DNA of 64,000 nt from Bacillota bacterium (GTDB lineage Bacteria; Bacillota; Sulfobacillia; JBFMBV01): contig JBFMBV010000007.1 in the NCBI GenBank assembly GCA_040755005.1, positions 1,181 to 65,180 of the forward strand, in the 5' to 3' direction. Within the stretch, counting starts at the first letter, position 1. Every line of letters begins with the position of its first letter. Below the pieces are notes generated by a model. That model had not been told where the DNA came from, did no database searches, and saw only the letters and a program-made list of their open reading frames with translations. Of this stretch, positions 10,661 to 60,417 are shown in pieces. The position numbers and the translations under genes are program-made.

Positions 10661-12010
10661 TCAGAACACCTCCAGGTTTGCGCGGGGAACGACTGCCTGC
10701 GTCCCGCACTCCAGTTCGACCTCGGCCACGGGCACCTTGGCCTCAGTCTCGATGACCACGGGCTCGCGGGGGATGCCCACGATCTTGCCCAAGGCGCCGA
10801 AGTGCGGATCGCTGATGACGCGCACCATCTGGCCCAGCTTAAGGTCCTCCTCCACGGAGCGCTGGCTGACCAAGGCGCCCGCGTAGTCAGGATAGGCCAC
10901 GATGATCTCGGGGCGGATGGCCCCGGCCCTGATTTGGGTAGCCCCGTTAATCGAGCCGTCCTGCCCCTCCATGGCCTTGAGCAGGTCGAACACGCCCTGG
11001 CGCATGGCAAGGTGGCCGAACCCCTCCATCAACACCAGCGTCACGCTGGTGTCCTCTTGCCCGGTGATGCCGACGCCCAGTTTGACCCCCAGGGAGTGGA
11101 TGATGGCCAGATAGGAGGCGGTCGCGGCGATGATGCCCTTGACACCGACCCTGGCGGCCTTGGCCAGCGCCTCGTCGGCCACGTGGGCCCCGCCGACCAG
11201 GATGCAACCCGCGTGTTCTGCCGATATCCCGTCCTCGGTCAGGACGTCGCCTGGGCCGTCGACGACTACCCGCAAGGGCCCGTGAGTTTCCCGGCCAACA
11301 CCGAAGATGCCGGTGATACGGACGGCTGGCGCTTCTACCACCACTCCCCGGTGGGGCAACACCTCTGCGACCCGCCCGTGCATATAACCCTTAATTATGA
11401 CTTCCTTGAACGGCCTGGCAATGGTGACCAGCCCGGTCTGGGTGTTGACCTCAGCGATGATCCCGGAGATGGGCGCGCGTACGGCCTTAGTGAAAAAGGC
11501 AGCCTGCTCACCCTTCTTGGCAAAGATCTGCTCTTTCTTAACCTCATCCCCGACCTTGCGCAGCATGCACTTAGGCAGATCGGCCGGCTTGACCCCCAGT
11601 TCGAAGGCGGCATCCACCTTGACCGGCGGCTCTTCCTTGCCGAACTCCTCGCGGATGACCACCCGTCCCGATCGGGCCGAGATGTCCTCCACCACCCCAT
11701 CGGTGGGCGACTCCAGCTCCTTGCGCCCGTAGATGCCCCGCAGGGCTCTGGCATACACCTGCTTGTGGCCGACCCGGTCCCCGACCTTCACCGCCATGGC
11801 TTCGGGGAGGTCAGCGGGCTCGATGCCGAGCAGGCGTGCAGCCGGCACGACCCAGGGAATGCCGGGCCGCAGGCTGATCTTGGCTACCGGCGTGTCCGGG
11901 GCCACTAGGTCACCGTTGCCGACCAGCACATCGCCGGGGAGAGGCAGGCGCCTGACCTTCCTGACCAGTTCGATTGGCAGGCTACCGTCGGAACAGAGAG
12001 AAAACGCCAC
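10661..12010 (-). CDS. Uncharacterised barrel-sandwich-hybrid/KOW protein (paralog 2, one extra repeat)
   Basis: Repeats VLVGNGDLVAPD / AVKVGDRV..ESPTDG / LRKVGDEV..RAPISG; MEGFG; NGATQIRAGAIRPE; GQMVRVISDPHFG. Confidence 0.8.
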   Translation of the reverse strand: MAFSLCSDGSLPIELVRKVRRLPLPGDVLVGNGDLVAPDTPVAKISLRPGIPWVVPAARLLGIEPADLPEAMAVKVGDRVGHKQVYARALRGIYGRKELESPTDGVVEDISARSGRVVIREEFGKEEPPVKVDAAFELGVKPADLPKCMLRKVGDEVKKEQIFAKKGEQAAFFTKAVRAPISGIIAEVNTQTGLVTIARPFKEVIIKGYMHGRVAEVLPHRGVVVEAPAVRITGIFGVGRETHGPLRVVVDGPGDVLTEDGISAEHAGCILVGGAHVADEALAKAARVGVKGIIAATASYLAIIHSLGVKLGVGITGQEDTSVTLVLMEGFGHLAMRQGVFDLLKAMEGQDGSINGATQIRAGAIRPEIIVAYPDYAGALVSQRSVEEDLKLGQMVRVISDPHFGALGKIVGIPREPVVIETEAKVPVAEVELECGTQAVVPRANLEVF

Positions 12011-13895
12011 GCTTCTCGCCCCCCTTCTCCAGCTTGGCGGCGGCTTTCACAGGGCTCTTGGCCAGGTACTCCTCGAGTTTGTCCACGGGGTACAGTTCCA
12101 TGGTGCGGACCCACTCCATCAGCAGGGCCGAGCGCTGCTTGGGGTCGTCGGGCACGGCCAAGGGCCTGCCTCTGGTGTCGACCACGATGCCAACCAGCCC
12201 GCCGTGAACTTCGCGTTCCACCGGCTTGCCCTTGACTCCCCCAAGGTCGAAACCGGCGGCGGGTACAGCGACCACGTGGGCTTTCTCTCCCACCTTGAGC
12301 TCGTACCGCTTGAGCTCACCGAAGCCGACCTTCTCCTTCACTACCTTCCCATCGGGGAAAGTGATGGTCAGGTCAAGACAGGGCTGCTTAGGCCGCCCCC
12401 GCCCCAAGGGGGCGATGCACGTACCCAGACGCACGAGGCAGTCTTTATCGAACACCTCGGCGGCGATGTCGGGGTGAGTGGAAGCGAGCACGCCCAAATG
12501 TGGCATCATGAAGATGCTGTCAACCGCCAGCTGCGTGAACCCCTGGGGTTCAAAGGCGTCGATCAGCATCATCGCGGCCTGGGTCCGGCGGGGAGCATGG
12601 GACAGGACGCCGCCTGACCCCACCAGCATGTCCAGGCGCATCATGTCAATCAGTTCAACGCCCGTGACCCGCCACAGTTTGCCCTGGTTGGAAAAGCTGC
12701 CTACCAGGCTGGCATCCTGTTGCTCGATCTTCCTGGCCAGTTTCTTGTGGTGTTCGAAGGACAGGCGCAGGGCCTCCCTGGCCAACGCCTGCTCGAGGAT
12801 GAGCTTGTCCAAGGTCTGGGGGATGGTGGTGGGCCTGACCATCTTGTTGGATATCCAGTCCGACAACCCCTCCGAGTCGGTCTCGAACGGCACCCACCGG
12901 CGGATGTTCTCTTCCTTCGCTTCCTCCATCACGTTGCAGATGGAATAGCTCATGCCCAGGTTCGCACTGACCGTACGGGTGAAGTTGCCGTCAAAGTTGG
13001 AAAAGACATCGGTGGTGGCGCCGCCGATGTCCACGCCGATGATGTTAGCCGAGTATTTCTCCGCCATCAGTGAGATGATGCTGCCAACAGCGCCGGGGGT
13101 CGGCATGATGGTGCCATCCACCCACTGCATCAGCTCGCCGTACCCGGGCGCTTGCGCCATCACGTGGTTCATGAACAGATCATGGATCGCTTCCCGGGCC
13201 GGCCCGAGATTCTCCACATCGTGCCTAGGCCTGAGGTTCTCCACCAGGTGCACGTCGAGGTTCTCCCCGGCGATGCTCATGATCAGATCCTGGGCATCGA
13301 TATTCCCGGCATAAACCAAGGGGAGCTTGTAGGAGGCCCCGAAGCGCGGCTGGGGGTTGGCCTGGACGATGGTCTCGGCGATGGCCGCGATATACGCGAC
13401 CGACCCGCCGTCCACGCCGCCCGACATGAGGATGATGTCCGGCCGCAGTTCGGTGATGCGCGTGATCTGCTCCGACGTTGAGCGGCCGTCGTCCACGGCG
13501 ATCACGTCCAACACGACAGCGCCGGCGCCCAGGGCCGCCCTGTGGGCACTGATGGCGCTGATGGTCGAGACCAGGCCGGCGACCATCATCTGCAGGCCGC
13601 CCCCGGCGCTGGAAGTAGACACATAGTAGTCCACGCCCTTGCTCCCGGACAGGGGCCTAACCAACTTTCCGGACGCGTCCAAGATGGGGCGTTGGATTAG
13701 CTCCTCCACCCGCTTGACCGACTTGCGCACTCCGATCATCACATTATCCCACGGCGCCTCGACCGTAGTAGGCATCTCGCCGCGAGTAACCAACCGGTAT
13801 TCGTCCCCGCGCTTCTCGATGAGGATGGCCTTGGTCGTGGTGCTGCCGACGTCGGTGGCCAGAATGGACGTCGGAGCCCTGCTTGCCGCCATCAC
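11982..13895 (-). CDS. Glutamate mutase L (GlmL/MutL)-like ASKHA ATPase (paralog 2)
   Basis: ATDVGSTTTK, MSGGVDGG, MPTPGAV, VDIGGATTDVFS, GSGGVLSHAP; strong RBS AGGAGGGG. Confidence 0.85.
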   Translation of the reverse strand: MMAASRAPTSILATDVGSTTTKAILIEKRGDEYRLVTRGEMPTTVEAPWDNVMIGVRKSVKRVEELIQRPILDASGKLVRPLSGSKGVDYYVSTSSAGGGLQMMVAGLVSTISAISAHRAALGAGAVVLDVIAVDDGRSTSEQITRITELRPDIILMSGGVDGGSVAYIAAIAETIVQANPQPRFGASYKLPLVYAGNIDAQDLIMSIAGENLDVHLVENLRPRHDVENLGPAREAIHDLFMNHVMAQAPGYGELMQWVDGTIMPTPGAVGSIISLMAEKYSANIIGVDIGGATTDVFSNFDGNFTRTVSANLGMSYSICNVMEEAKEENIRRWVPFETDSEGLSDWISNKMVRPTTIPQTLDKLILEQALAREALRLSFEHHKKLARKIEQQDASLVGSFSNQGKLWRVTGVELIDMMRLDMLVGSGGVLSHAPRRTQAAMMLIDAFEPQGFTQLAVDSIFMMPHLGVLASTHPDIAAEVFDKDCLVRLGTCIAPLGRGRPKQPCLDLTITFPDGKVVKEKVGFGELKRYELKVGEKAHVVAVPAAGFDLGGVKGKPVEREVHGGLVGIVVDTRGRPLAVPDDPKQRSALLMEWVRTMELYPVDKLEEYLAKSPVKAAAKLEKGGEKRGVFSLFRR

Positions 13896-50176: not shown

Positions 50177-53100
50177 TCATGCAGTGGCCCATTCCGCGGA
50201 CAGTAGCGCCGCCTGCTCCAGCACCGTCGCCGTCGCCTTCTCTTGCTTGTCCGGCGGGTAGCCATACTTGCGCAGGATGCGCTTCACTAGCACGCGCAAC
50301 TGGGCGCGGACGTTCTCCCGTAGGGTCCAGTCGATCGTCACGTTCCTCCGTACCGTCTCGACCAGCTCGCGTGCGATCGTGCGGAGCGTGTCGTCGCCTA
50401 GTACCTTCACTGCGCTGTCGTTGGTCTCCAGGGCGTCGTAGAACGCCAACTCGTCTTCGGTGAGCCCCAACACCTCGCCGCGCGCCCGGGCCTCGCGCAT
50501 CTCCCTCGCCAGCGCGATCAGCTCCTCGATCACCTGCGCTGCCTCGATGGCCCGGTTCTGGTAGCGACGGATGGTCTGCTCCAGCATCTCGGCGAACGAT
50601 CTGGCCTGCACTACGTTCTTGCGGCGAAGGGTCGCCAGCTCTCCCTTGAGCAGCTTCTGCAGGAGTTCCACGGCCAGGTTCCGCTGCGGCATCCCGCGCA
50701 CGTCGGCCATAAACTCCTCCGACAGGATGGAGATGTCGGGCTTGTGCAGCCCCGCAGCGGCGAAGATGTCCAGGACCCCTTCCGGGGCGACGGCCCGGGA
50801 GATGATCTGGCGTACCGCGTGGTCCAACTCCGCCTCGGGGCGCGTCTCACCCGGCGCGCGCTTGGCGAGCACCGCCTGCACGGCCTGAAAGAACGCCACG
50901 TCGTCGCGGATGCGCAACGCCTCCGTGTGAGGCACGGCCAGCGCGAAGGCCTGCGAAAGCTCGCGCACCGCTTGGAGGCAACGGTCCTTGCCGTTCCCCT
51001 GTGAAAGGATGTGCTCCTGCGCCGCGGTCAGAAGCGCGAGGCGCTCGGCCGACGCGCCGGTCGCCCACTTCGCCCAGTCAAGGCCCTCCGTGGCGCCGGT
51101 CGGCGTGGTAATCGGCCCGAACAGGCCGCGGCAGACCTCGTGCTTTTCCAGCATCAGCGCCACCGCTTCCTCCTGGTCGAGCGCGGTGCGGCCAGTGCCG
51201 CCGCTTTCGGTGTAGGTGGCCAGCGCGGCCTTGAGCTCCTGCGCGAGACCCAGGTAGTCTACTACCAGGCCGCCGGGCTTGTCCTTGAACACGCGGTTGA
51301 CGCGCGCGATGGCCTGCATCAGCCCGTGCCCGCGCATGGGTTTGTCTACGTACATGGTGTGCAGGCTCGGCGCGTCAAAGCCCGTGAGCCACATGTCGCG
51401 CACCAGCACCAGGTTGAGCGGGTCGGCGGGACTGCGGAAGCGTTTGGCCAGCTTCTCGCGCCGAGGCTTGTTGCGGATGTGCGGTTGCCAGTCCGCGAGG
51501 TCGGAGGCCGAGCCAGTCATCACCACCTTCACCGCCCCCTGCGCGTCGTCTTCAGCAGCCCATGTCGGCCGCAGCTTCACCAACTCGCGATACAACTCCA
51601 CGCAGATGCGCCGACTCATGCAGACGACCATCGCCTTGCCGTCGATGGCCTCGAGCCGCTTCTCGAAGTGCTCCACGATGTCCCGCGCCACCAGTGCCAG
51701 CCGTTTCTCGGCGCCAACCACGGCCTCCAGCTGCGCCCACCTGGTCTTGAGCTTCTCCTTGCGCTCGACCTCCTCACCCTCGGTCGCTTCCTCGAAGTCG
51801 GGGTCGATCTTCGGCCGCTCGGCCTCGTCGAGCGCCAGCTTGGCAAGCCGGCTTTCGTAGTAGATCGGTACTGTCGCGCCGTCTTGGACAGAGCGCTGGA
51901 TGTCGTAGACGCTGATGTAGTCCCCGAACACCTGGCGCGTGTTGGCGTCGGCCAGTTCGATGGGCGTGCCGGTGAAGCCGATAAAAGAGGCGTGCGGCAG
52001 CGCGTCGCGCATGTGACCGGCGAAGCCGTCGGCGAAGTCGTACTGGCTGCGGTGCGCCTCATCGGCGATTACCACAATGTTGCGCCGATCTGAGAGCTTG
52101 GGGTGCCGGTCGCCTTTCTCTTCGGGGAAAAACTTGTGGATCGTGGTGAACACCACGCCGCCCCCCACCACCGAGAGCAGTTCGCGGAGGTGCGCGCGGC
52201 TCTCGGCCTGCACGGGGGGCTGGCGGAGCAGCTCCTGGCAGCGCGAGAACGTGCCGAAAAGCTGGTCGTCGAGGTCGATGCGGTCGGTGAGCACGACCAG
52301 CGTGGGGTTCGCCATCGCCGGCTCGCGGATGATGCGGCCCGCGTAGAACGCCATGGTCAGGCTCTTGCCTGAGCCCTGCGTGTGCCACACCACGCCCACG
52401 CGCCGGTCACCGGGCTTGCCGCCGGGTTTGTGCCCCGCCTCGTAGCGCCCGGCCTCGGCAACGCGGTCAACCCGGGCCAGCTCCGCCGCGCGGAGGGTCT
52501 CGCGCACCGCCACGTGAACCGCGTGGAATTGGTGGTAGCCGGCCATCTTCTTGTCGAGCTGGCCGCTGCCGTCGTCCTCGAAAACGATGAAATCGCGCAC
52601 CAAGTCGAGGAAGCGCCGCTTCTCAAATAGCCCCTCGATGACGACCTGTAACTGCGGCACCGTTTCGGGCGCGAGCATCTCGCCGCCGACGGTGCGCCAC
52701 GGCTTGAACCACTCCCGGCCGGCAGTGAGCGTCCCGACGCGGGCCTCGACGCCGTCGGAGACGACCAGCACCGCGTTCGGCGCAAACAGCGACGGAATCT
52801 CGGCCTTGTAGGTCTGAAGCTGCTGGAAGGCCGTCCAGATGGTCGCGTCTTCGTCCGCCGCGTTCTTGAGCTCGATCACCGCCAGCGGCAGGCCGTTGAC
52901 GAACAGCACCACGTCCGGGCGACGGCTGTGCTTGTTTTCGACCACCGCGAACTGGTTGACGGCGAGCCAATCGTTGTTGCCGGGATCGTCGAAGTCAAGC
53001 ACCTGCGCCTGCGCGCCGCGGATCGCACCGTCCGCCGCGCGATATTCCATGGTTACGCCGTCCACGAGGATAAGATGGAGCGCCCGGTTGCGCTGGATCA

Positions 53101-53350
53101 GGTCCGCCCCTTCGGGCCGCGTGAGCTTGCGGAAGGCGTCGTCCAGCGCTTCGGCCGGAAGGTGCGGGTTGAGGCGGGCGAGCGCATCTCGCAGGCGCTG
53201 GGTAAGCACCACCTCGCCGTAGTCGCGCCGCTCGGCCAAGAGCTGATCCGGCGCGATCTCCGGACCGTGCGCGATGCGCCAGCCCATGGCCTCCAGCCAG
53301 GCCAGCGCGGCTTGCTCGACGACGGATTCGGTGACCCCACGTTCGGTCAT
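50177..53350 (-). CDS. hsdR: Type I restriction endonuclease subunit R
   Basis: [59 protein letters not shown]. Confidence 0.96.
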
Positions 53351-55029
53351 GGTTTCCCCTTGCGGGACTTTGCCTCGGACGCGCTGAGGCCCGTCGCTCC
53401 CGTACCCTTCTTGTTCTTCGGTTTGCTCGCAGTTCCCGCGGATTCGCTCACAGGTGCGAACGCGACTTTGAAGCCCAACTCCTGTAGTAGCTTCGTATGC
53501 TGCATGAGGTTCAACTGACTGAAGAAAGGCAACGCATCCGCCTCCGTGCCGCTCTTCGTGATTACTGCATATACGACCTCCCACTCGCCTGGAGTGGGGC
53601 GAGTAGAATCATCGGGAATCACGCTCTGCCACGTCGCAGTCAGCTTTGCCCGTAAGTTGTTTCGTACGCTTCCGTCACCAAGAAACACTCGTGCCCCAAC
53701 GGTTCCTTGCGAGAAGAGATGACTTAGGGTTGAGGACCGCGACTTCCGTTTCACATGCACAAAACGATTACGGCGTCCGAGCAGGTCGCAGAACTCGATT
53801 TCTGTGGCCGCATCCAGTGGCTTGAATAACTCGCCATCCAAACAGAAATAGTCGCTCACGTGCGCCTCAGCTACACGTCCGTTGTAGTCGCCTTCCTTCT
53901 CCTCTGGACGTGCCGCCGGTAGTGTGCCAAACACAGGGACGTTCCGCACAAACTGCTTGACGGTCTGTGCAAAGCTGGTCTCCACCTGAAACCACTTGCC
54001 TTCAACCAGCACGTGCAGGCTGCCGTCCGTCTCGGTTTCCCAGACGATGCAAGAGAAAAGCGACCACTTATCCTGAAACTGTCCGGACTCGCTATGTCGC
54101 AACGAGACGCGATAGGACTTGATCTTTTCAATCGTCAGGGCAGTGACGTCATCGTTGGCAAGCTGGCTCAGATAGTCGTCGATGTCCAGGTCGTTGTACT
54201 CGTGCCTGCGCGTTCCGGTGATCTGAAAGCAATCGACGTTCTGCCAATCCAGCGGCTCCGGTGCGGCAAGATGGAGCCTCTCGGTCTGCTTGTTGCGAAT
54301 GGCTTCTATGAGTCTGTCGTTAAGCTTGTCCAACAGTCCTTGGTCTCGCACTTCCTGCAGGTTATCGATCCAAGCAAAGTTCGTCTTGTACGTGCTCTCT
54401 TGCGACTTTGCGAGAAGTTGCCTGCACTTATCTTCGAGATCGCGCGCTCTGATTGGAAGGTTTATCGTGACGGCATCGGCGCCAGTCACGCGCTTGGCGA
54501 AGCCCTGATCGGTCGGTTCGCCAGTGATCGCGCGGAGCATGTCCCTAGAAATATCGAGGCCAAACGGCGTCAGGTCTGCGCTTCGGCTTGCCTGCTTTCT
54601 CGTGGACATCGCGAACTCTTCGTAGGTTCGGATGTCCATGCTTCGGAGCTGCTTGTGATCGATCGTGTTTAGTGCCACCTTTAGTCCGAACCCAAGTTCG
54701 TAGCAAGCGGGCTTGAGGAGGTTGCGGCCGTAGCCGAAGGTGATCGCAAAGAGCCGCGCGGCAGCCCTAACGAATAGGACCGCTGCAACCGTGGTCCCCT
54801 TGATGTCCTTCGGACAATGTTCGAGGGCATCGTCGATGAACGAAATCCAAGCGGGCGTTCGACTCCGGGGCATTGCGTGCCAGAACTCACCTGTGAATCC
54901 CGCGTCGTTCTTGAGCTTGACGAGGCTTAAATTCTCAGGGTCTTGAAGCCCCGCCTCGCAGGATTTCACGGAGTCCTTGAGAAGCAGGATCGTGAGCTTG
55001 CGCGTCTTCTCTTTCGCCTCTCTTGCCAT
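53347..55029 (-). CDS. TIGR04141/DUF6119-like sporadically distributed protein (putative nuclease)
   Basis: [52 protein letters not shown]; lower GC; coupled to hsdS and hsdR. Confidence 0.75.
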
Positions 55030-56258
55030 CAGACAGCCCTCGCGATGAACTTCTCGGCATCCCTCACCCGCAACTTCCCAGAGATGAGTTTGGGGAGCAG
55101 CGCATCGCGCAGGGCGGCGAGGGTGCGGGATTCGCGGCGGCACTCAAGTAGCCGGTCTGCCAGAGGGCAGGCAAGTCGCTCGAAGGCGGCATTGATCGCT
55201 GCGGTGGGCATGACGATGGCCATTCCTAGGATGGCGCTTGGCTGCGCTCGCTGGTGGCTCTTCGATGTTCCAGTAACAAGCCCTTCGATGTCCTGCCGAA
55301 AGATAGGCGATCGCATGCCGCAGTACGCGTATGTCCGCCCATACCGTGAACGAGGCGCGAGAACAAGGAACTCCGTAGAGCACACAGCGCGATCACCCGG
55401 CTGGATGTCAACGAGCCATACGCGTTCGATCTCCGGATTGAGCTTGGAGAGCAAGACGACTCTTAGCGGAACTCGGAACTTCAGACTCTTTATGCTCGCG
55501 CCGTGCTCCAACGTCGGCCATTGGCCGTCGTCGAATGCGGGAATGCTGAAGTGTCGAAATACCGCGTCCGGAGAGTCAAGGGGATTCTCGCTGTCGCGCA
55601 AATGCTCGACCACATCGCCGAGCTTCCCCACCTCCCATCCCTCCGGGATCTCGCCGAGTTCGGAGTCGACGAGGCGTGCGGGGAAGAGGTCGGCGAGGGG
55701 CTTGGGGAGGCCGGGGTTACGGCCTTCGGCCTTAGCGCGGACGGGGGCGAAGTCCACGAACCACGACTTGAACAGCGCCCGCGCCATCTCCTCCAGCGTC
55801 TCGCTCATCCGCCGGTTCAACTCGATCTTGTCGTCCAGCGTTCCGAGGATGTGGGCGATGGCGCGCTGTTCCGCTGGCGGGGGAACGAGGACCGGCAGGT
55901 TGTAGAACGCTTCGCGGCTTGTGGAAGGAATCGCCGAGCCGCTGTCCATCCCGTTGATGTCTTGGGTCAGTAGTTCGTAGTAGGCCCAGCGAGCATCGAT
56001 CTCGCTCTTTGGCTCCAGGTAGAAGGCGGTGTCGATCACGAAAAAGGGTGCGGGAGAGTAATGAACGCCCCGATAGGCACCCTTCCGGCCAATGATGACG
56101 CTGGGGTGACAGCATAGTGCTTCGTCATACCAGCCTACGGGGCCATTTGTTCCAAAGACGCGAAACCGACCCTTGCTCTCCGCATAACCTCGCAGCGCCC
56201 GGCCGTACTCAAGGGTTGCGAGGTCTCCCCACGTCAGCTCACGCCACTCACCCGCCAT
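55029..56258 (-). CDS. hsdS: Type I restriction specificity subunit S
   Basis: Two TRDs with conserved PPPAEQRAIAHILGTLDDKIELN, ELGEIPEGW, LAALRDALLPKLISG. Confidence 0.95.
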   Translation of the reverse strand: MAGEWRELTWGDLATLEYGRALRGYAESKGRFRVFGTNGPVGWYDEALCCHPSVIIGRKGAYRGVHYSPAPFFVIDTAFYLEPKSEIDARWAYYELLTQDINGMDSGSAIPSTSREAFYNLPVLVPPPAEQRAIAHILGTLDDKIELNRRMSETLEEMARALFKSWFVDFAPVRAKAEGRNPGLPKPLADLFPARLVDSELGEIPEGWEVGKLGDVVEHLRDSENPLDSPDAVFRHFSIPAFDDGQWPTLEHGASIKSLKFRVPLRVVLLSKLNPEIERVWLVDIQPGDRAVCSTEFLVLAPRSRYGRTYAYCGMRSPIFRQDIEGLVTGTSKSHQRAQPSAILGMAIVMPTAAINAAFERLACPLADRLLECRRESRTLAALRDALLPKLISGKLRVRDAEKFIARAV

Positions 56259-56298
56259 ACCCAAGCTCCTTCGGGTTGGCGGCCTCGGCCCATTGCTT
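56248..56298 (-). repeat. Degenerate copy of the hsdM 3' tail (copy 3), supplying the hsdS RBS/start
   Basis: Reads KQWAEAANPKELGYGG*, compared with hsd[23 protein letters not shown]. Confidence 0.75.
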
Positions 56299-56318
56299 GG
56301 CAGTATTCTCGATGCCCC

Positions 56319-56663
56319 TCACGCCTTCCCCTCCAGTCGCAGCAGGAGTTGCCCGATGCGGGGCCTGAGCGCCATGGCGTCTCGGCTGGCGGCTTCCCAG
56401 ACAATCCCGGTATCGATGTCGAAGTATCCGTGCACCAGCACGTTGCGCATCCCAATGATCTTGGGCCATTCGATCTCCGGCGCCAGCGCACGCACCTCCT
56501 CGGGCAGCCCCCAGGCTGCCTCTCCGATGATTTGAAGGTTGCGGACGAACCAGCCTTGCAACAACTCGTCCTGCTCGAAGGCGGCCTTGCCGCGGTGAAG
56601 ATGGCGCTCGATGGCTGCGATGGCCTCGAGCATGTCACGCAACCGTTCCTTGGGGTCCCTCAT
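56319..56663 (-). CDS. HEPN (DUF86/HepT) ribonuclease toxin
   Basis: IIGEAA, IEWPKIIGMRNVLVHGY (R-x4-H-x-Y). Confidence 0.9.
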   Translation of the reverse strand: MRDPKERLRDMLEAIAAIERHLHRGKAAFEQDELLQGWFVRNLQIIGEAAWGLPEEVRALAPEIEWPKIIGMRNVLVHGYFDIDTGIVWEAASRDAMALRPRIGQLLLRLEGKA

Positions 56664-56950
56664 AACGGCACGGCACCCTGGAGCACTCGGTCGCGGATGC
56701 GCGCCTTGAGCCCTCGCTCGGTCATGACGTCTACGGGACGGCCAAGCAGACGCTCCAACTCGTACTGAAGACCTCCCAGGTCGAAGAGGCTGCGTCCCGG
56801 CTCCATCTCAACCAAGAAATCAACATCGCTCCGGGCGTCGGCTTCCCCGCGCGCGACGGAACCGAAGACCCGCGGGTTGCGCGCGCCGTAGGTTGCGCAA
56901 AGACCCAGGATTTCCTCGCGCTTCTCTTTCAACCGTTCGTCAATAGCCAT
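56660..56950 (-). CDS. Minimal nucleotidyltransferase (MNT/MntA) antitoxin
   Basis: VFGSVARGEA..SDVDFLV, SLFDL, LLGRPVDV. Confidence 0.9.
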   Translation of the reverse strand: MAIDERLKEKREEILGLCATYGARNPRVFGSVARGEADARSDVDFLVEMEPGRSLFDLGGLQYELERLLGRPVDVMTERGLKARIRDRVLQGAVPL

Positions 56951-57001
56951 ACCCCAGCTCCTTTAGGTTGGCGGCGATGGCGGCGTCGAGCCCGCGGCCT
57001 C
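56940..57001 (-). repeat. Degenerate copy of the hsdM 3' tail (copy 2), supplying the MNT RBS/start
   Basis: GAGGCCGCGGGCTCGACGCCGCCATCGCCGCCAACCTAAAGGAGCTGGGGTATGG = (EAA)LDAAIAANLKELGYGY*. Confidence 0.8.
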
Positions 57002-57113
57002 AGTAGATGTGTCTTTGGACACCGTCAATGCGACTTGCACGCGCGCAGACGGGAAGTGCGCGCGCGGTCTTATTTTAAGACCGCGGTCAAACGCAGTAAG
57101 ACTGCGGCTATAT

Positions 57114-58804
57114 TTATAAACGCGGGCCATACCATGCCCCTTTTCGCGTGCCGTGCAACACGATCTTCCCTTCCCGTGTGAACCTGGCCAGGAGTCGCCC
57201 CGCCTGACGGATGCCAAGTTGGCAAAGTTCGGCGGCCTCCGTCCGGGTAATTCGACCGTGTCTTTGCACGAATTGCAGGAGCATCTGCTCCTGCTGCAGC
57301 GGCTCGAAGCCGCGCTGGCGCACGTAGGCGGCCGGCTGCCCCAGGCGGCGATAGGTGGCGGCGGAGAGGTGCCAGGTTCGGCCCTTGCGCTCGCCACGCG
57401 GTTCGACGAGGCCGAGTTCGACCAACCGGTTCAGCATCGCACGTGCCTCGGCATCCGGCTTCTGGGTGAGGCGGGTGGCTTCTTCCGTCGTCAGCCGCCG
57501 ATCGTGCCAGAGCGCGTTCAGGATCAGGAGATCATCCAAGCCGAGGTGGCGCCCGGCTCGGGATTCCTCGGCGAGGAGACGAACGAACTCCAGATTGGCC
57601 TCCCCGCCGGGCAGAACCAGGACGACGCCGGCCTCGTTACTGCGGTCGTAGGAGGGTGCGGGCCGGCCGTTGCGGAGCTGCTCGTAGAAGATCGTGTCGA
57701 TGCCGCGCGCAGTGCGTTCGACGATCCCGGCGCGCTTGAAGGCGTCGGCCAGAAGAGGGTTGCGCGGGCGGGGTGCGGTGACGAAGAGATTGTCCAGCCG
57801 CACGCCTTCGGGAAAGCTGCCCGGGTTGGAGATCTCGAGGCGATCGGCGTGCCATTGGATATGGACGGCACCGAGGCGGGTGTAATCGCGATGGATCAGC
57901 GCGTTGGCCAGGGCCTCGCGGAACGCCGGCGGCGGATGGTCCGGCACGGCTACCCGCAGGAGCCCCACCAGGACCTCCTGTTCGCGGTTGCGGGCGGCAA
58001 AGCGTTGCTCGCACTCCTCCATGACGCGCAAGAGCGGCCAGCGGAAGAACTCGTTGACTTCTACCCTTTGCCCGGCCAGCACCTGAAAAGCGACCTCGTG
58101 CGTAGGCAGAAGTCGCCGGAGCGCGTGCTCCTTGCCGAAGAGAAGCAGGCCCAGGACCCGGACGCTCCGGACCTGGCCGTTGGCTTCCACGGCACCCAGC
58201 GCCTTGGCCAATTCCAGGTCCGGCAGGGTGAGCAATGAGGAATCGCCGCTACGGCGTTCGCGGATGCTGCGGCGGAATCGTTCGAACTCCAGAGGATCTA
58301 GGTCTTCCCATGTGGCATCCGGGAGGACTAACGCGGAGTAATCCTCGGCGCCACGGTCGGCCTGCCGGGCCTGCATTTCGTGGAAAACATCGGCAGGCAG
58401 CAGGGCTTGCCGTCGCCGCCGAGCGCCCGTCGCAGGTACTTGCCGGCCGTCGTGCCCACGGGGGCGGACATCGGCGGAACTTCGATCGCGATAACCTCCC
58501 TCCCCTGCAAGGGGACCAAGGCAATACGCGGGATCAACGACGGTCGGGTGCGATTGGCAATGAGGGCGGCAAGCCGCGGCGAATCGGTCCGGCCGGATTC
58601 ATGTCGTGGACGCGCGCCAGTCACACGGCCGTCGTCTTCCACGCCGACCAGCAGCCAGGCCGGTGAATTCGACGAACGATTCACCAGGCAAGCGATGGCC
58701 TCGACCAACTCGTCGTCCGACAGGGGCTTTTGTTCTTCCCCCTTGAACTCGACGTCGACCGATTCACCTACATCGATCAGGCCCTGAAGCCGCTCAGGCA
58801 TCAT
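57114..58804 (-). pseudogene. AlbA_2/Schlafen-like + HATPase_c_4 + HTH protein split by a frameshift near 58385
   Basis: N-ORF GESVDVEFK..LLVGVEDDG; C-ORF FREALANALIHRDY, LEISNPG, PRNPLLA, VERTARGI, tandem HTHs. Junction ATG TTTT CCACGAAATG needs one more T. Confidence 0.75.
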
Positions 58805-60417
58805 GGCTGCGTCTCCCAGAAGCCAAGTTCCTTCAGATTGGCTTCGATCGCGGCATCGAGCTTCGCGGCCTCGGCCTGCTGCTCGCGCAGCGCAGCGGTG
58901 AGCCGCTTCATCTTCTCCGCGAAGGGTTCACCGTCGTCCTCCTGGGCCTCGGCGCCGACGTAGCGGCCGGGCGTGAGCACATGACCGTGTTTGCGCACTT
59001 CCTCCAGCGTGGTGCTCTTGCAGAAGCCGGGAATGTCCTCATAGGTGGTTCGGCCGTCCACGGCCTCGGGGGGGACGTCCTTCTCGCCACGCCAGAGGTG
59101 ATAAGTGCCGGCGATGCGAGCGATGTCCGCATCGGTGAGTTCGCGATGCGTGCGGTCCACCATGCGGCCCATCTTGCGGGCGTCGATGAAGAGCACCTGC
59201 CCGCGCCGGTCGCGGAACTTCCCGTTCTTCCTGTCCCGCCCCAGAAACCACAGGCACGCCGGGATCTGTGTCGAGTAGAAGAGCTGCCCCGGCAACGCGA
59301 CCATGCAGTCCACGAGGTCAGCCTCGATCAGCTTCTTGCGAATCTCGCCCTCTCCCGACTGATTGGACGACATCGAGCCGTTGGCGAGCACGAATCCGGC
59401 CACGCCCGCGGGCGCGAGGTGGTGCACGATGTGCTGCACCCAGGCGAAGTTGGCGTTGCCGGTCGGCGGTACTCCGTACTGCCAGCGCTTGTCGCCGCGC
59501 AAGCGCTCGCCGCCCCAATCGGAGACGTTGAACGGGGGGTTGGCGAGGATGAAGTCGGCCCTGAGATCGGGGTGGCGGTCGTTGTGGAAGGTGTCGCCGT
59601 GAGCGATCTGGCCATCGATGCCGCGGATGGCAAGATTCATCTTGGCGAGCCGCCAGGTGGTGTAGTTCGACTCCTGGCCGTAGATGGAGATGTCCGCCTG
59701 CGCCTTGCCGCCGTTGCCGTTCCCGTTGGCATGCGCGCGGACAAACTCTACCGACTGCACGAACATGCCCGAGGATCCACAGCAGGGGTCGTACACGCGG
59801 CCGCGGTAAGGCTCCAGCATCTCGACCAGCAGCTTGACGACGCAACGCGGCGTGTAGAACTCGCCGCCCTTCTTGCCCTCAGCGTTGGCGAACTGCGAGA
59901 GGAAGTACTCGTATACGCGGCCGAGCACGTCCTTGGCGCGGCTCGCCTCGTCTCCGACCTTGATGTTGCTGACCAGGTCGATCAACTGGCCGAGGCGCAT
60001 CCTGTCGAGCGTGGGTCGGGCGTAGTCTTTAGGCAGTACGCCCTTGAGGGCCGGGTTGTCGCGCTCGATGCCAGCCATGGCGTCGTCGACGAGTTGGCCG
60101 ATGGTGTTCTGGCGGGCCTGGGCCTTGAGGTGCTGCCAGCGCGCGTCGGGTGGAACCCAGAAGATGGACAGTGCGCGGTACTCATCCGGATCCTCGGGGT
60201 CGGCGCCCTGGCTTTCCTCCGTGATGAGCTTCGCGTGCTGCTCCTCGAAGGCATCGGAGATGTACTTGAGGAAGACCAGGCCGAGGACTACGTGCTTGTA
60301 CTCGGCGGCGTCCATCGAACCGCGTAGGGCGTCGGCCATTTGCCACAGCTGGGACTCGTATCCGACGGTGGCGCCGTTCGTTTCTGGTGCCCTGGTGTGG
60401 TTCTTCCGCTTGGCCAT
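58801..60417 (-). CDS. hsdM: Type I N6-adenine DNA methyltransferase subunit M
   Basis: [42 protein letters not shown]. Confidence 0.97.

Follow-up and report, generated by a model that had tools for sequence, protein, structure and literature searches.

The cargo array separating hsdM from hsdS in the type I restriction-modification (RM) operon described here is punctuated by two degenerate copies of the 3′ end of hsdM, each of which includes AAGGAG and the start codon of the gene that follows. Both copies point to non-resident hsdM alleles, and orphan relics of the same kind are present in about one sixth of the related type I loci surveyed. The two copies, numbered 2 and 3 after the intact tail of hsdM, are probably scars of the recombination that placed the cassettes at an overlapping, translationally coupled hsdM-hsdS junction. 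The window referred to below is the whole stretch of DNA that was analysed (64,000 nucleotides).

An hsdM-hsdS array with copies of the hsdM tail

HsdM, HsdS and HsdR are encoded in a single same-strand cluster and were all recognized by Pfam matches (Table 1), the membership of HsdR being based on its HSDR_N, SF2 ATPase and C-terminal domains. Between hsdM and hsdS lie, in this order, the AlbA_2 ATPase gene, a first relic, the MNT-HepT pair and a second relic.

Table 1. Features of the type I RM locus, listed from hsdM to hsdR (positions in the window)
Feature	Position	Strand	Remarks
hsdM	58801..60417	-	538 aa; N6_Mtase E=3e-106, HsdM_N E=2.5e-28 (Pfam)
Intact hsdM tail (final 75 nt)	58801-58875	-	
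Cargo 1, AlbA_2 (Schlafen-like) + HATPase_c_4 + winged-HTH gene	57114..58804	-	
Lower-GC structured spacer, cargo 1 to copy 2	57004..57113	-	GC 0.58 in 57000-57299
Copy 2, relic ascribed to the hsdM 3′ end of another allele	56938-57003	-	precedes MNT
Cargo 2a, MNT nucleotidyltransferase (antitoxin-type)	56660..56950	-	96 aa; NTP_transf_2 E=2.7e-13
Cargo 2b, HepT-like HEPN RNase (toxin-type)	56319..56663	-	114 aa; HepT-like E=1.1e-24
Copy 3, short hsdM-tail relic (...AANPKELGYGG and stop)	56240-56282	-	precedes hsdS; includes AAGGAG and hsdS ATG
hsdS	55029..56258	-	409 aa, starts MAGEW; Methylase_S E=1.2e-13 (Pfam)
Cargo 3, DUF6119 gene, hsdS-hsdR gap	53347..55032	-	DUF6119 E=3e-154 (Pfam)
hsdR	50177..53350	-	HSDR_N, SWI2_SNF2, T1R_D3-like, T1RH-like_C (Pfam)

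The first cargo gene, with Pfam matches to SLFN_AlbA_2 (E=3.6e-13), HATPase_c_4 (E=1.9e-17) and HTH_24, is split in the window into two ORFs (58804..58328 and 58376..57114), whose frames are joined by an extra A after 58383 in contigs of four public runs. The N-terminal part of its product matches the PADLOC model PDC-S50 at no better than E=8e-6, and the spacer behind it has a stable predicted fold (56990-57125; -32.4 kcal/mol, z=-3.64, with 0 of 200 shuffles equally stable). The second unit is made up of two small neighbouring genes, NTP_transf_2 and HepT-like, whose stop and start overlap by 4 nt (56660-56663), the arrangement of an MNT-HepT (type VII) toxin-antitoxin pair, as which they are predicted, and its MNT protein matches PADLOC PDC-S09 (E=8e-39). 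A third cargo gene, that of the DUF6119 protein, shows ATGA overlaps at either end and a GC content of 0.55-0.57, as compared to 0.64-0.70 in its surroundings, and no tail relic is associated with it. Neither HepT nor the DUF6119 protein matched a PADLOC model at E<=1e-5. All three cargo units (AlbA_2, MNT-HepT and DUF6119) are on the minus strand and have hsd genes on either side, as embedded genes do, and they may be regarded as predicted embedded defence candidates.

The leading direct-repeat family in the region 56100-59000 (56254-56283, 56946-56975 with 90% and 58816-58845 with 67% identity), together with the profile matches given below, bears out the claim of the sequence-only reading that the hsdM tail is present three times on the minus strand, copies 2 and 3 spanning about 40-70 bases of the hsdM end. 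Copy 2 reads EAA, a 1-nt deletion and LDAAIAANLKELGYGY with its stop, the deletion being the cause of its frameshift, and was recovered by nhmmer with E=1.5e-12 (profile columns 26-92) and at the protein level by hmmsearch with E=7e-7. Aligned with the true tail, it has 40 of 50 identical bases, one 1-nt gap and a Smith-Waterman score of 48, against 25 for the best unrelated match among 1278 window tiles. Nine of the 12 substitutions between them fall at third codon positions (P=0.004), in keeping with the earlier statement that the copies differ mostly at synonymous sites.

Copy 3 is 90% identical to copy 2 over 30 nt (E=5e-5 within the window) and near-identical to the intact hsdM-hsdS junction of a related locus, L106. 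Compared with the true tail alone it scores 25, the background level, and it is the profile match (nhmmer E=2e-6, columns 56-98) that supports it instead; a degenerate extension reaches approximately 56305. Since the 5′ part of copy 3 can be aligned in two ways, with an internal deletion or with small indels, the gap ('--') drawn in it earlier is one of two readings of a copy that is itself real.

Tail relics in related type I loci

A DNA profile derived from 37 hsdM-hsdS junctions of other organisms was kept fixed for two independent collections of related loci, one from genomes and one from metagenomes (n=79 each), with a threshold of E<0.01. Orphan tail relics were detected in 26 of these 158 loci (12 in the genome set and 14 in the metagenome set), which provides the tail duplications flanking variable cargo that the sequence-only reading had proposed to look for; as the similarity is also significant, the refuting outcome named there did not occur. 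All of them lie on the same strand as hsdM and downstream of it. None of the 84 loci with directly adjoining hsdM and hsdS had a relic, compared with 21 of the 53 loci having cargo and then hsdS; in the other 32 cargo-bearing loci a relic was undetected at E<0.01, so the relic is not obligatory. At least eight cargo families are involved, some of them recurrent (YhcG in eight loci and Fic in four), so that the loci are not independent and the separate insertions must be fewer than 26. The cargo belongs to known families of embedded defence candidates, several of which correspond to PADLOC models, as YhcG does to PDC-S02, ORF6N to PDC-S05, Fic to SoFic (a named system) and MNT to PDC-S09. Relic length varies from ~36 to >300 nt, and the relics do not share a fixed core site. 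The window, L055, L112 and L143 each have an array containing at least two relics, and in the three stacked arrays seen, the longer relic is the one nearer hsdM.

The 3′ end of a relic consists of AAGGAG, ~7 nt and the ATG of the next gene, and in the contexts listed nearly every relic leads to GGNTATGG where the following ORF begins, be it hsdS or a cargo gene. The relics without this end are the first of L112, the second of L041 and the first piece of a split relic in L143. The final ~45 nt of the relics are conserved like those of intact tails, whereas decay affects the 5′ part. In profile columns 56-85, relics agree with the consensus at 0.72-0.77 identity and intact tails at 0.72-0.73, against 0.19-0.50 and 0.64-0.72, respectively, in columns 1-55 (absent columns counted as mismatches). 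Overlapping hsdM/hsdS stop and start codons, typically in the form ATGGCGGGTGA, are present in 84 of the 158 relatives. From their position and conservation, the relics would provide a Shine-Dalgarno sequence and a start codon to the next gene. This agrees with the portable translation signal suggested earlier for the window, where AAGGAG and ATG do precede MNT and hsdS as had been described, and where the true tail overlaps the start of the AlbA_2 gene (ATGA).

A chance or compositional resemblance in GC-rich DNA, without common origin, might be suspected from a tail rich in GCC and GCG codons and from the background score of copy 3 against the true tail alone. This is scarcely credible in view of the profile E-values of both copies, the precise position of the relics at gene starts in nearly all contexts, and the opposite strand, where ~1.4 Mb and 0.77 Mb of sequence gave no match with E<0.01 (best E=0.17 and 0.034, respectively).

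Allele origin and formation of the joints

When 159 tails are ordered by their match to copies 2 and 3, that of the window itself comes 63rd and 90th, respectively, which upholds the earlier suggestion of different hsdM alleles and indicates that both copies derive from alleles other than the resident one, so that they would be recombination scars kept as translation starts. The own tail ranked first in 4 of 29 relics (L025, L089, L141 and L165). Exact runs of 30-62 nt between own tail and relic were found in L025, L079, L089, L164, L165 and L167, and these exact repeats are fresh events elsewhere; in L025, a 690-nt AT-rich insert is flanked by repeats with 93 of 98 identical positions.

Comparisons between loci point to recombination at the tails. 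L119 has the hsdM-AlbA_2 junction of the window and a copy-2-type relic ending in ATGGCWATTGAC, a motif that follows a tail relic only in these two among 159 sequences (158 loci and the window). Its relic is fused straight to hsdS, and the difference between L119 and the window is therefore exactly MNT-HepT plus copy 3, in register, a comparison that concerns one pair with ~72% DNA identity and a 12-nt motif. L049 and L052 have in common hsdM, the leader and a relic (38 nt, 92%) and differ in the body of their cargo (Fic vs Hypoth_Ymh), which suggests cargo replacement between conserved flanks. A sister-strain contig retains the entire array and diverges from 15 nt after the hsdS ATG. L067 carries an MNT-HepT pair (74% and 73% identical to that of the window) directly behind an intact hsdM, with the MNT ATG within the hsdM tail. 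The proposal that the tail acts as a recombination anchor thus finds support in L119 and in L049/L052, but not in the conservation of the tail, whose mean pairwise DNA identity (0.57-0.64 over the final ~100 nt) is below that of the complete gene (0.69). A role as preferred homology arm would therefore rest on position, not on identity.

The proposed pathway starts from the final codons of hsdM, which would be needed for HsdM-HsdS binding, the same bases holding the RBS and start codon of the next gene. As the end of hsdM would be doubly needed, an insertion would survive only if this segment flanked the cargo at either end. Of the two copies, the upstream one would remain the functional end of hsdM, and the downstream one would lose its coding role and decay from its 5′ side, except for the final ~45 nt, which would be retained for their part in starting translation of the gene that follows. 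The array of the window would have been assembled in at least two events and, with both relics coming from non-resident alleles, the joints would have been made between different type I loci. The likely route is general recombination assisted by homology, within the tail or close to it, and not a dedicated integrase.

The relics could also be the remains of whole second hsdM genes from tandem or fused type I systems, most of the downstream hsdM having been deleted and only the piece with the next start having been protected. Two full tandem hsdM genes with cargo between them do occur in L074, L108 has, downstream of its hsdM and at the contig end, an hsdM piece that measures at least 327 nt (residues 400-516), and relics of 140-210 nt are present in L109, L164, L165, L167 and L170. 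However, the lengths are skewed short, with most relics below 110 nt even though long fragments are the easiest to detect, and tblastn gave one fragment >210 nt besides L074 in the 158 loci. Moreover, the four relics best matched by their own tail, and the exact own-tail runs of 41-58 nt in L025, L079 and L165, look like local duplication, which makes this origin quite improbable. A transposon insertion with target-site duplication was rejected, as the duplications are not short or of fixed length (~36 to >200 nt); no transposase gene was found among the 8 locus proteins and 13 flanking ORFs, and the best inverted repeats in 56100-59000 (14-24 nt, 71-88% complementarity) do not flank any cargo gene.

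An active cassette system without integrase, in which tail-plus-gene modules are excised as circles and re-inserted at any hsdM tail, integron-like at the present day, would fit the modular arrays with two or more relics, the exact repeats of six loci, which are capable of recombination, and the presence or absence of the MNT-HepT unit in register with the repeats. To these may be added a remnant-like stretch with MNT-HepT upstream of hsdM in L118 (weak, E=0.031) and a low-depth contig of run X2 that passes from an hsdM allele through 37 unlike letters into copy 2. On the other hand, the three copies of the window have exact matches of only 9-12 nt, so that tail-tail excision today, as envisaged by the sequence-only reading, should be inefficient, and no excision product with window-identical flanks appears among the contig joints listed, contigs being blind to rare variants. 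The variable length of the relics, without a fixed core, and the divergence of hsdM plus Fic in L018 and L049 as a single block (74% over 2790 nt) also speak against such a system, which we regard as unlikely. Past recombination at the tails, the preferred reading, might still be extended to a broader and rather tentative one. Type I RM operons would then be recombinase-free cassette platforms and the hsdM 3′ end a universal 5′ adaptor (homology arm plus translation start), by which loci of distant phyla exchange, accumulate and lose unrelated defence and toxin-antitoxin genes. The order of acquisition would be recorded in how far each relic has decayed, and a search for relics would be a means of flagging new embedded defence genes.

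Comparison with known systems

Embedding in type I RM operons is already well documented. The term 'guilt by embedding' has been used for defence genes that lie within loci of type I RM, BREX, DISARM and Hma (Payne et al. 2024, bioRxiv 10.1101/2024.01.29.577857), with examples such as PrrC in EcoprrI, DarTG2 in a type I system of EPEC (PMC12255303) and TgvAB in V. cholerae VPI-2 (PMC11411939). The window resembles these loci in its same-strand cargo between hsd genes and in cargo families matching PADLOC models. The accessible text of the three sources contains no sequence signature, mechanism or hsdM-tail relic; that of Payne et al. (2024) has no occurrence of the word 'recombination' and leaves the route of entry open, its discussion offering the idea of a 'genomic sink'; what embedding signifies, the authors write, 'remains to be explored'.

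With the tail relic, the insertion event has a tangible and frequent mark in the sequence, which would account for the survival of both hsdM function and downstream-gene translation and indicates that different hsdM alleles are joined in many insertions. The relic hints at the way in which defence genes become embedded without breaking the operon. Orphan hsdM 3′ ends located at gene starts would be a simple marker for the limits of cassettes, the number and order of events and new embedded genes, and, if tail-mediated exchange is active, defence genes would have a route of mobility without mobile-element machinery.

The hsdM/hsdS overlap is also known from EcoKI, where translation of both genes is coupled (Roberts et al. 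2012, PMC3510504) and where removal of ~43 C-terminal residues of HsdM abolished binding to the M1S1 complex (Kennaway et al. 2009, PMC2647291). The EcoKI studies concern intact junctions, whereas the window has duplicated junctions with cargo between them.

Campbell-type (single-crossover) integration and homology-facilitated illegitimate recombination both leave direct repeats flanking the inserted DNA, and no description of either at hsd loci was found in the literature searched. Swapping of target-recognition domains in hsdS likewise involves recombination between conserved segments, and the first domain (55871-56244) is replaced, from 15 nt after the hsdS ATG, in contigs from four public runs, of which the run X1 contig is near-identical to the window over the array. 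In such systems and in phase-variable type I loci it is the domains of hsdS that are shuffled, in many cases by means of a dedicated recombinase and inverted repeats, whereas the window has whole unrelated genes between direct repeats of hsdM sequence.

Integron cassettes are similar in forming promoterless, same-strand gene arrays in which each gene comes with a repeated boundary element. The integron-like stacking proposed earlier nevertheless holds as an analogy only. Integrons rely on the IntI integrase, attI and attC, and no integrase gene was found within about 7 kb of the array, nor any recombinase family among the 8 locus proteins and 13 flanking ORFs (42.3-63.9 kb). The DNA folds of the three copies (z = +0.94, -2.24 and -0.32), two of them not beyond shuffled controls and the third modest, are unlike attC-type sites as judged by fold and not by an attC model. 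The repeat of the window is, by comparison, a piece of coding sequence 5′ of each gene, variable in length and apparently doubling as RBS and start codon.

The operon and its hsdM tail copies

The genes of the array are all on the minus strand and make up one type I RM operon, into which three units are inserted. Neighbouring genes overlap through ATGA at four junctions (hsdM/AlbA_2, MNT/HepT, hsdS/DUF6119 and DUF6119/hsdR), and the only two intergenic stretches of the operon both contain tail copies. One flank contains PtsI and HPr and the opposite flank a polysaccharide deacetylase and HpaB, all housekeeping genes. No recombinase families were found among the 21 proteins scanned in the operon and its flanks, and a simple scan of 56150-58950 gave no promoter-like sites, with terminator-like sites at chance level only. 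The genome has one hsdM, and the nearest genomes for comparison are related to it at the level of class only.

Genes and tail copies of the operon (window positions)
Feature	Position	Strand	Remark
hsdM	60417-58801	-	
True tail (intact hsdM 3' end)	58801-58875	-	
AlbA_2/HATPase_c_4/wHTH gene	58804-57114	-	inserted unit
Copy 2 (tail relic)	56938-57003		before MNT
MNT	56950-56660	-	inserted unit with HepT
HepT	56663-56319	-	inserted unit with MNT
Copy 3 (tail relic)	56240-56282		before hsdS
hsdS	56258-55029	-	
DUF6119 gene	55032-53347	-	inserted unit
hsdR	about 53350-50177	-	

The sequence-only reading had proposed that the hsdM tail occurs three times in this array, and a direct-repeat search returned the three copies as its first family (56254-56283; 56946-56975, 90%; 58816-58845, 67%). 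Alignment of the true tail (78 nt) with copy 2 gave 40/50 identities and one 1-nt gap, with a score of 48 against 25 for the best unrelated among 1278 window tiles, a match that blastn-short missed and that required Smith-Waterman and profile searches. Copies 2 and 3 agree at 90% across 30 nt (E=5e-5), while copy 3 against the true tail alone scores at background level. An independent test came from a DNA profile built on the direct hsdM-hsdS overlaps of 37 loci from other organisms; its E-values were 1.5e-12 for copy 2 and 2e-6 for copy 3. The three copies are thus confirmed, and the survey of 158 loci described below generalises them. Between the tail and copy 2, codon positions 1/2/3 differ 0/3/9 times (P=0.004 for at least 9 of 12 at the third), which indicates that both diverged while still coding.

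The DUF6119 gene, placed between hsdS and hsdR with an ATGA overlap at each end, has a GC content of 0.55-0.57, as compared to 0.64-0.70 in its surroundings; it has no PADLOC match, and no hsd-tail relic is found at this third insertion. The spacer 3' of the AlbA_2 gene (56990-57125) is lower in GC and folds into three hairpins (z=-3.64, 0/200 shuffles as stable). Its possible roles include those of a terminator, processing site or small repeat element.

Tail relics and cargo in related type I loci

With the window hsdM protein as query, species-representative genomes yielded 80 loci (65-87% identity, spread over many phyla) and metagenome contigs another 80, 79 being usable in each set. Orphan tail copies, or relics, were detected with a fixed profile at E<0.01 in 12/79 and 14/79 loci respectively, all of them downstream of hsdM and on its strand. 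No opposite-strand relics appeared at this threshold (best E=0.17 and E=0.034 in the two sets), and upstream same-strand matches comprised two weak ones (L019, E=0.021; L118, E=0.031). Five strong upstream matches were rejected as relics, being true tails with long C-terminal extensions (L035, L047, L053) or artefacts of stop-codon placement (L130, L025). At the protein level, a profile score of at least 12 in the first set gave 11 downstream same-strand matches, none on the opposite strand and one upstream (the L025 artefact). Two weaker cases may be added, L093 (protein level, E=5.5e-4) and L061 (E=0.04).

When loci were classed by where the open hsdS frame begins, relics were present in 0/84 loci with hsdM directly abutting hsdS and in 21/53 with cargo followed by hsdS, as well as in 4/9 with no hsdS seen, 1/11 with too short a downstream flank and 0/1 for the odd locus L130; these loci are not independent events, as several have cargo families in common, probably through a common ancestral insertion. 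Relics are tied to cargo. In L118 (3196-3840), an MNT-HepT pair preceded by a degenerate stretch resembling the tail (E=0.031) is found upstream of intact hsdM-hsdS genes, so that a module of relic plus MNT-HepT may be present beyond the hsdM-hsdS gap as well.

Cargo genes, taken as those that separate a relic from hsdM or from another relic, belong to Fic/SoFic (L018, L041, L049, L112), YhcG/DUF1016 (L021, L061, L079, L104, L109, L141, L143, L164), RhuM (L104, L167, L175), ORF6N (L041, L055, L097, L125, L170), HEPN/MNT pairs (L125, L165), AlbA_2 or HATPase_c_4 types (L119, L093), a 23S_rRNA_IVP-like gene (L089), Hypoth_Ymh (L052) and small family-less ORFs (L025, L103, L122). Several of these families fit the PADLOC models PDC-S02, PDC-S05, PDC-S09 and SoFic. 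Such genes embedded in type I loci are already known (Payne et al. 2024; PMC11411939; PMC12255303), and for the origin of the embedding the discussion of Payne et al. 2024 gives only the idea of a 'genomic sink'. A literature search by title and abstract found no description of hsdM 3' duplications around embedded genes.

The 3' ends of the relics run, in nearly all printed contexts, into AAGGAG(N7)ATGG, whose ATG opens the ORF that follows, either hsdS, with the typical start ATGGCGGGTGAGTGG, or another cargo gene; this end is absent from two pieces, the first relic of L112 and the first piece of a split relic in L143. Over profile columns 56-85, relics keep a consensus identity of 0.72-0.77 (intact tails, 0.72-0.73), whereas over columns 1-55 they fall to 0.19-0.50 against 0.64-0.72, absent columns being counted as mismatches. 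These data support the proposal of the tail as a portable translation signal, which would supply AAGGAG and ATG to the start of the next ORF. In EcoKI, hsdM and hsdS overlap and their translation is coupled (PMC3510504), and an HsdM lacking about 43 C-terminal residues showed no binding to the M1S1 complex (PMC2647291).

Relic lengths range from about 36 nt up to 140-210 nt (L109, L164, L165, L167 and L170), and in all three in-line arrays with two relics (window, L055, L112) the longer one is nearer hsdM. Larger hsdM pieces were also seen: L108 (8183-8509) has an hsdM fragment of 327 nt or more at its contig end, and L074 (11894-13915) a complete second hsdM, separated from the first, upstream one by an MNT-domain gene and a family-less ORF. 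The L143 array (11515-12984) reads hsdM, a 72-aa ORF, a weak short relic (E=0.27), YhcG, a relic split by about 80 nt, and hsdS. The YhcG ORF starts there at the ATG of the weak relic, and in L021, L061, L079 and L109 at an ATG inside the intact hsdM tail (ATGGC...).

Allele origin of the relics and probable recombination at the tails

The own tail of the locus is the best of 159 matches for 4/29 relics (L025, L089, L141, L165) and among the top three for 6/29, and ranks 50th-143rd for many others, the window copies being 63rd and 90th of 159. These ranks indicate two relic classes. The first are apparently near-identical local duplications; exact runs between own tail and relic reach 58 nt in L025, 41 in L079, 30 in L089, 51 in L164, 50 in L165 and 62 in L167. 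Relics of the second class, which includes the window, are heterologous, with the upstream hsdM end and the relic coming from different alleles. The suggestion that the window copies derive from different hsdM alleles is thus supported by both their ranks and the third-position differences. Copy 3 and the hsdS start are almost identical to the intact junction of L106.

In L025 (11536-12378), two hsdM-end copies identical at 93/98 positions enclose an AT-rich insert of 690 nt, whose 146-aa ORF belongs to no known family; the second copy has TAG for a Gln codon. This insertion looks like a very recent event. The window hsdM ending ...GGGAGACGCAGCCATGATG (58801-58830) matches the 3' end of the L049 Fic gene (12788-12805) at 17/18 nt, but with E=0.25 this 18-nt match is not significant, and the WETQP* ending as a scar of a deleted Fic gene is not established.

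Recombination at the tails was addressed by comparing loci. An uninterrupted hsdM-AlbA_2 block is common to L119 and the window (1734 nt, 72% identical); both the ATGA overlap and the unusual ending LG(F/L)W(R)ETQ are part of it. The AlbA_2 gene of L119 is truncated, and a relic ending ...GGTATGGCAATTGAC is fused straight to hsdS (MAIDW...); in a scan of 158 loci and the window (159 sequences), ATGGCWATTGAC follows a tail relic only in window copy 2 and L119. What separates the two loci is thus precisely one repeat period (MNT-HepT and copy 3), the outcome expected from either its gain or its loss by recombination between aligned tail copies. L049 and L052 agree in hsdM, in the leader, over the opening ~55 cargo codons and in the relic (92% across 38 nt), with unlike cargo bodies, Fic vs Hypoth_Ymh. 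The carrier of the short L052 relic, Thermus tenuipuniceus, is in culture. L018 and L041 are 82% identical in hsdM, 65% in Fic and 91% in the relic. In L067, the same MNT-HepT pair (74% and 73%) lies directly behind an intact hsdM, with the ATG of MNT inside GGGTATGG of the hsdM tail. The idea of the tail as a recombination anchor is thus favoured by comparative evidence from loci, but the tail does not stand out as conserved within hsdM DNA: pairwise identity averages 0.57-0.64 over the final ~100 nt of the gene, against 0.69 for its whole length and as much as 0.83 for the catalytic motifs, the last 45 columns being poorly aligned because the reference, the window, has an atypical hsdM end. 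The tail as the most conserved part of hsdM DNA was accordingly rejected.

Public-run contigs and the comparison with integrons

Public sequencing runs were compared as Logan contigs, which are blind to rare variants, and among the joints listed in them there was no hsdM-MNT or hsdM-hsdS excision product with window-identical flanks. A joint 59147->56992 in run X5 was rejected as such a product, since the hsdM found there is another allele, 85% identical, whose tail resembles copy 2. Run X1 has a 3189-nt contig that matches 58891-56244 at about 97%, and hence has the same array, and that then shows a different sequence until 55871, corresponding to another first recognition domain of hsdS. A close relative therefore has the same array and another DNA specificity. 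The joint replacing 55871-56244 is present in all four runs compared, with array continuity traced in X1 only, and adds to the comparative evidence for recombination at the tails.

The AlbA_2/HATPase_c_4 gene is split in the window into two overlapping ORFs (58328-58390), whose frames are joined by one extra A after 58383 in contigs of four runs; the frameshift reflects either variation between strains or misassembly at a short T run. Of the differences listed between the window and the X1/X2 contigs, 33 fall together in MNT-HepT (56353-56786), a rate of about 7.6% as compared to about 1.2% for the AlbA_2 portion; this cluster looks like a recombination patch with its ends inside genes, not at tails.

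Efficient RecA recombination takes roughly 20-30 nt or more of identity. The window copies have only 9, 12 and 10 nt of exact identity with one another, and excision in this strain should consequently be rare. The sequence-only reading had likened the array to an integron without an integrase; unlike integron attC sites, the window copies do not fold in an attC-like manner (z = +0.94, -2.24 and -0.32), and integron-like excision, which would be no more than an analogy, is unlikely to be active at this locus.
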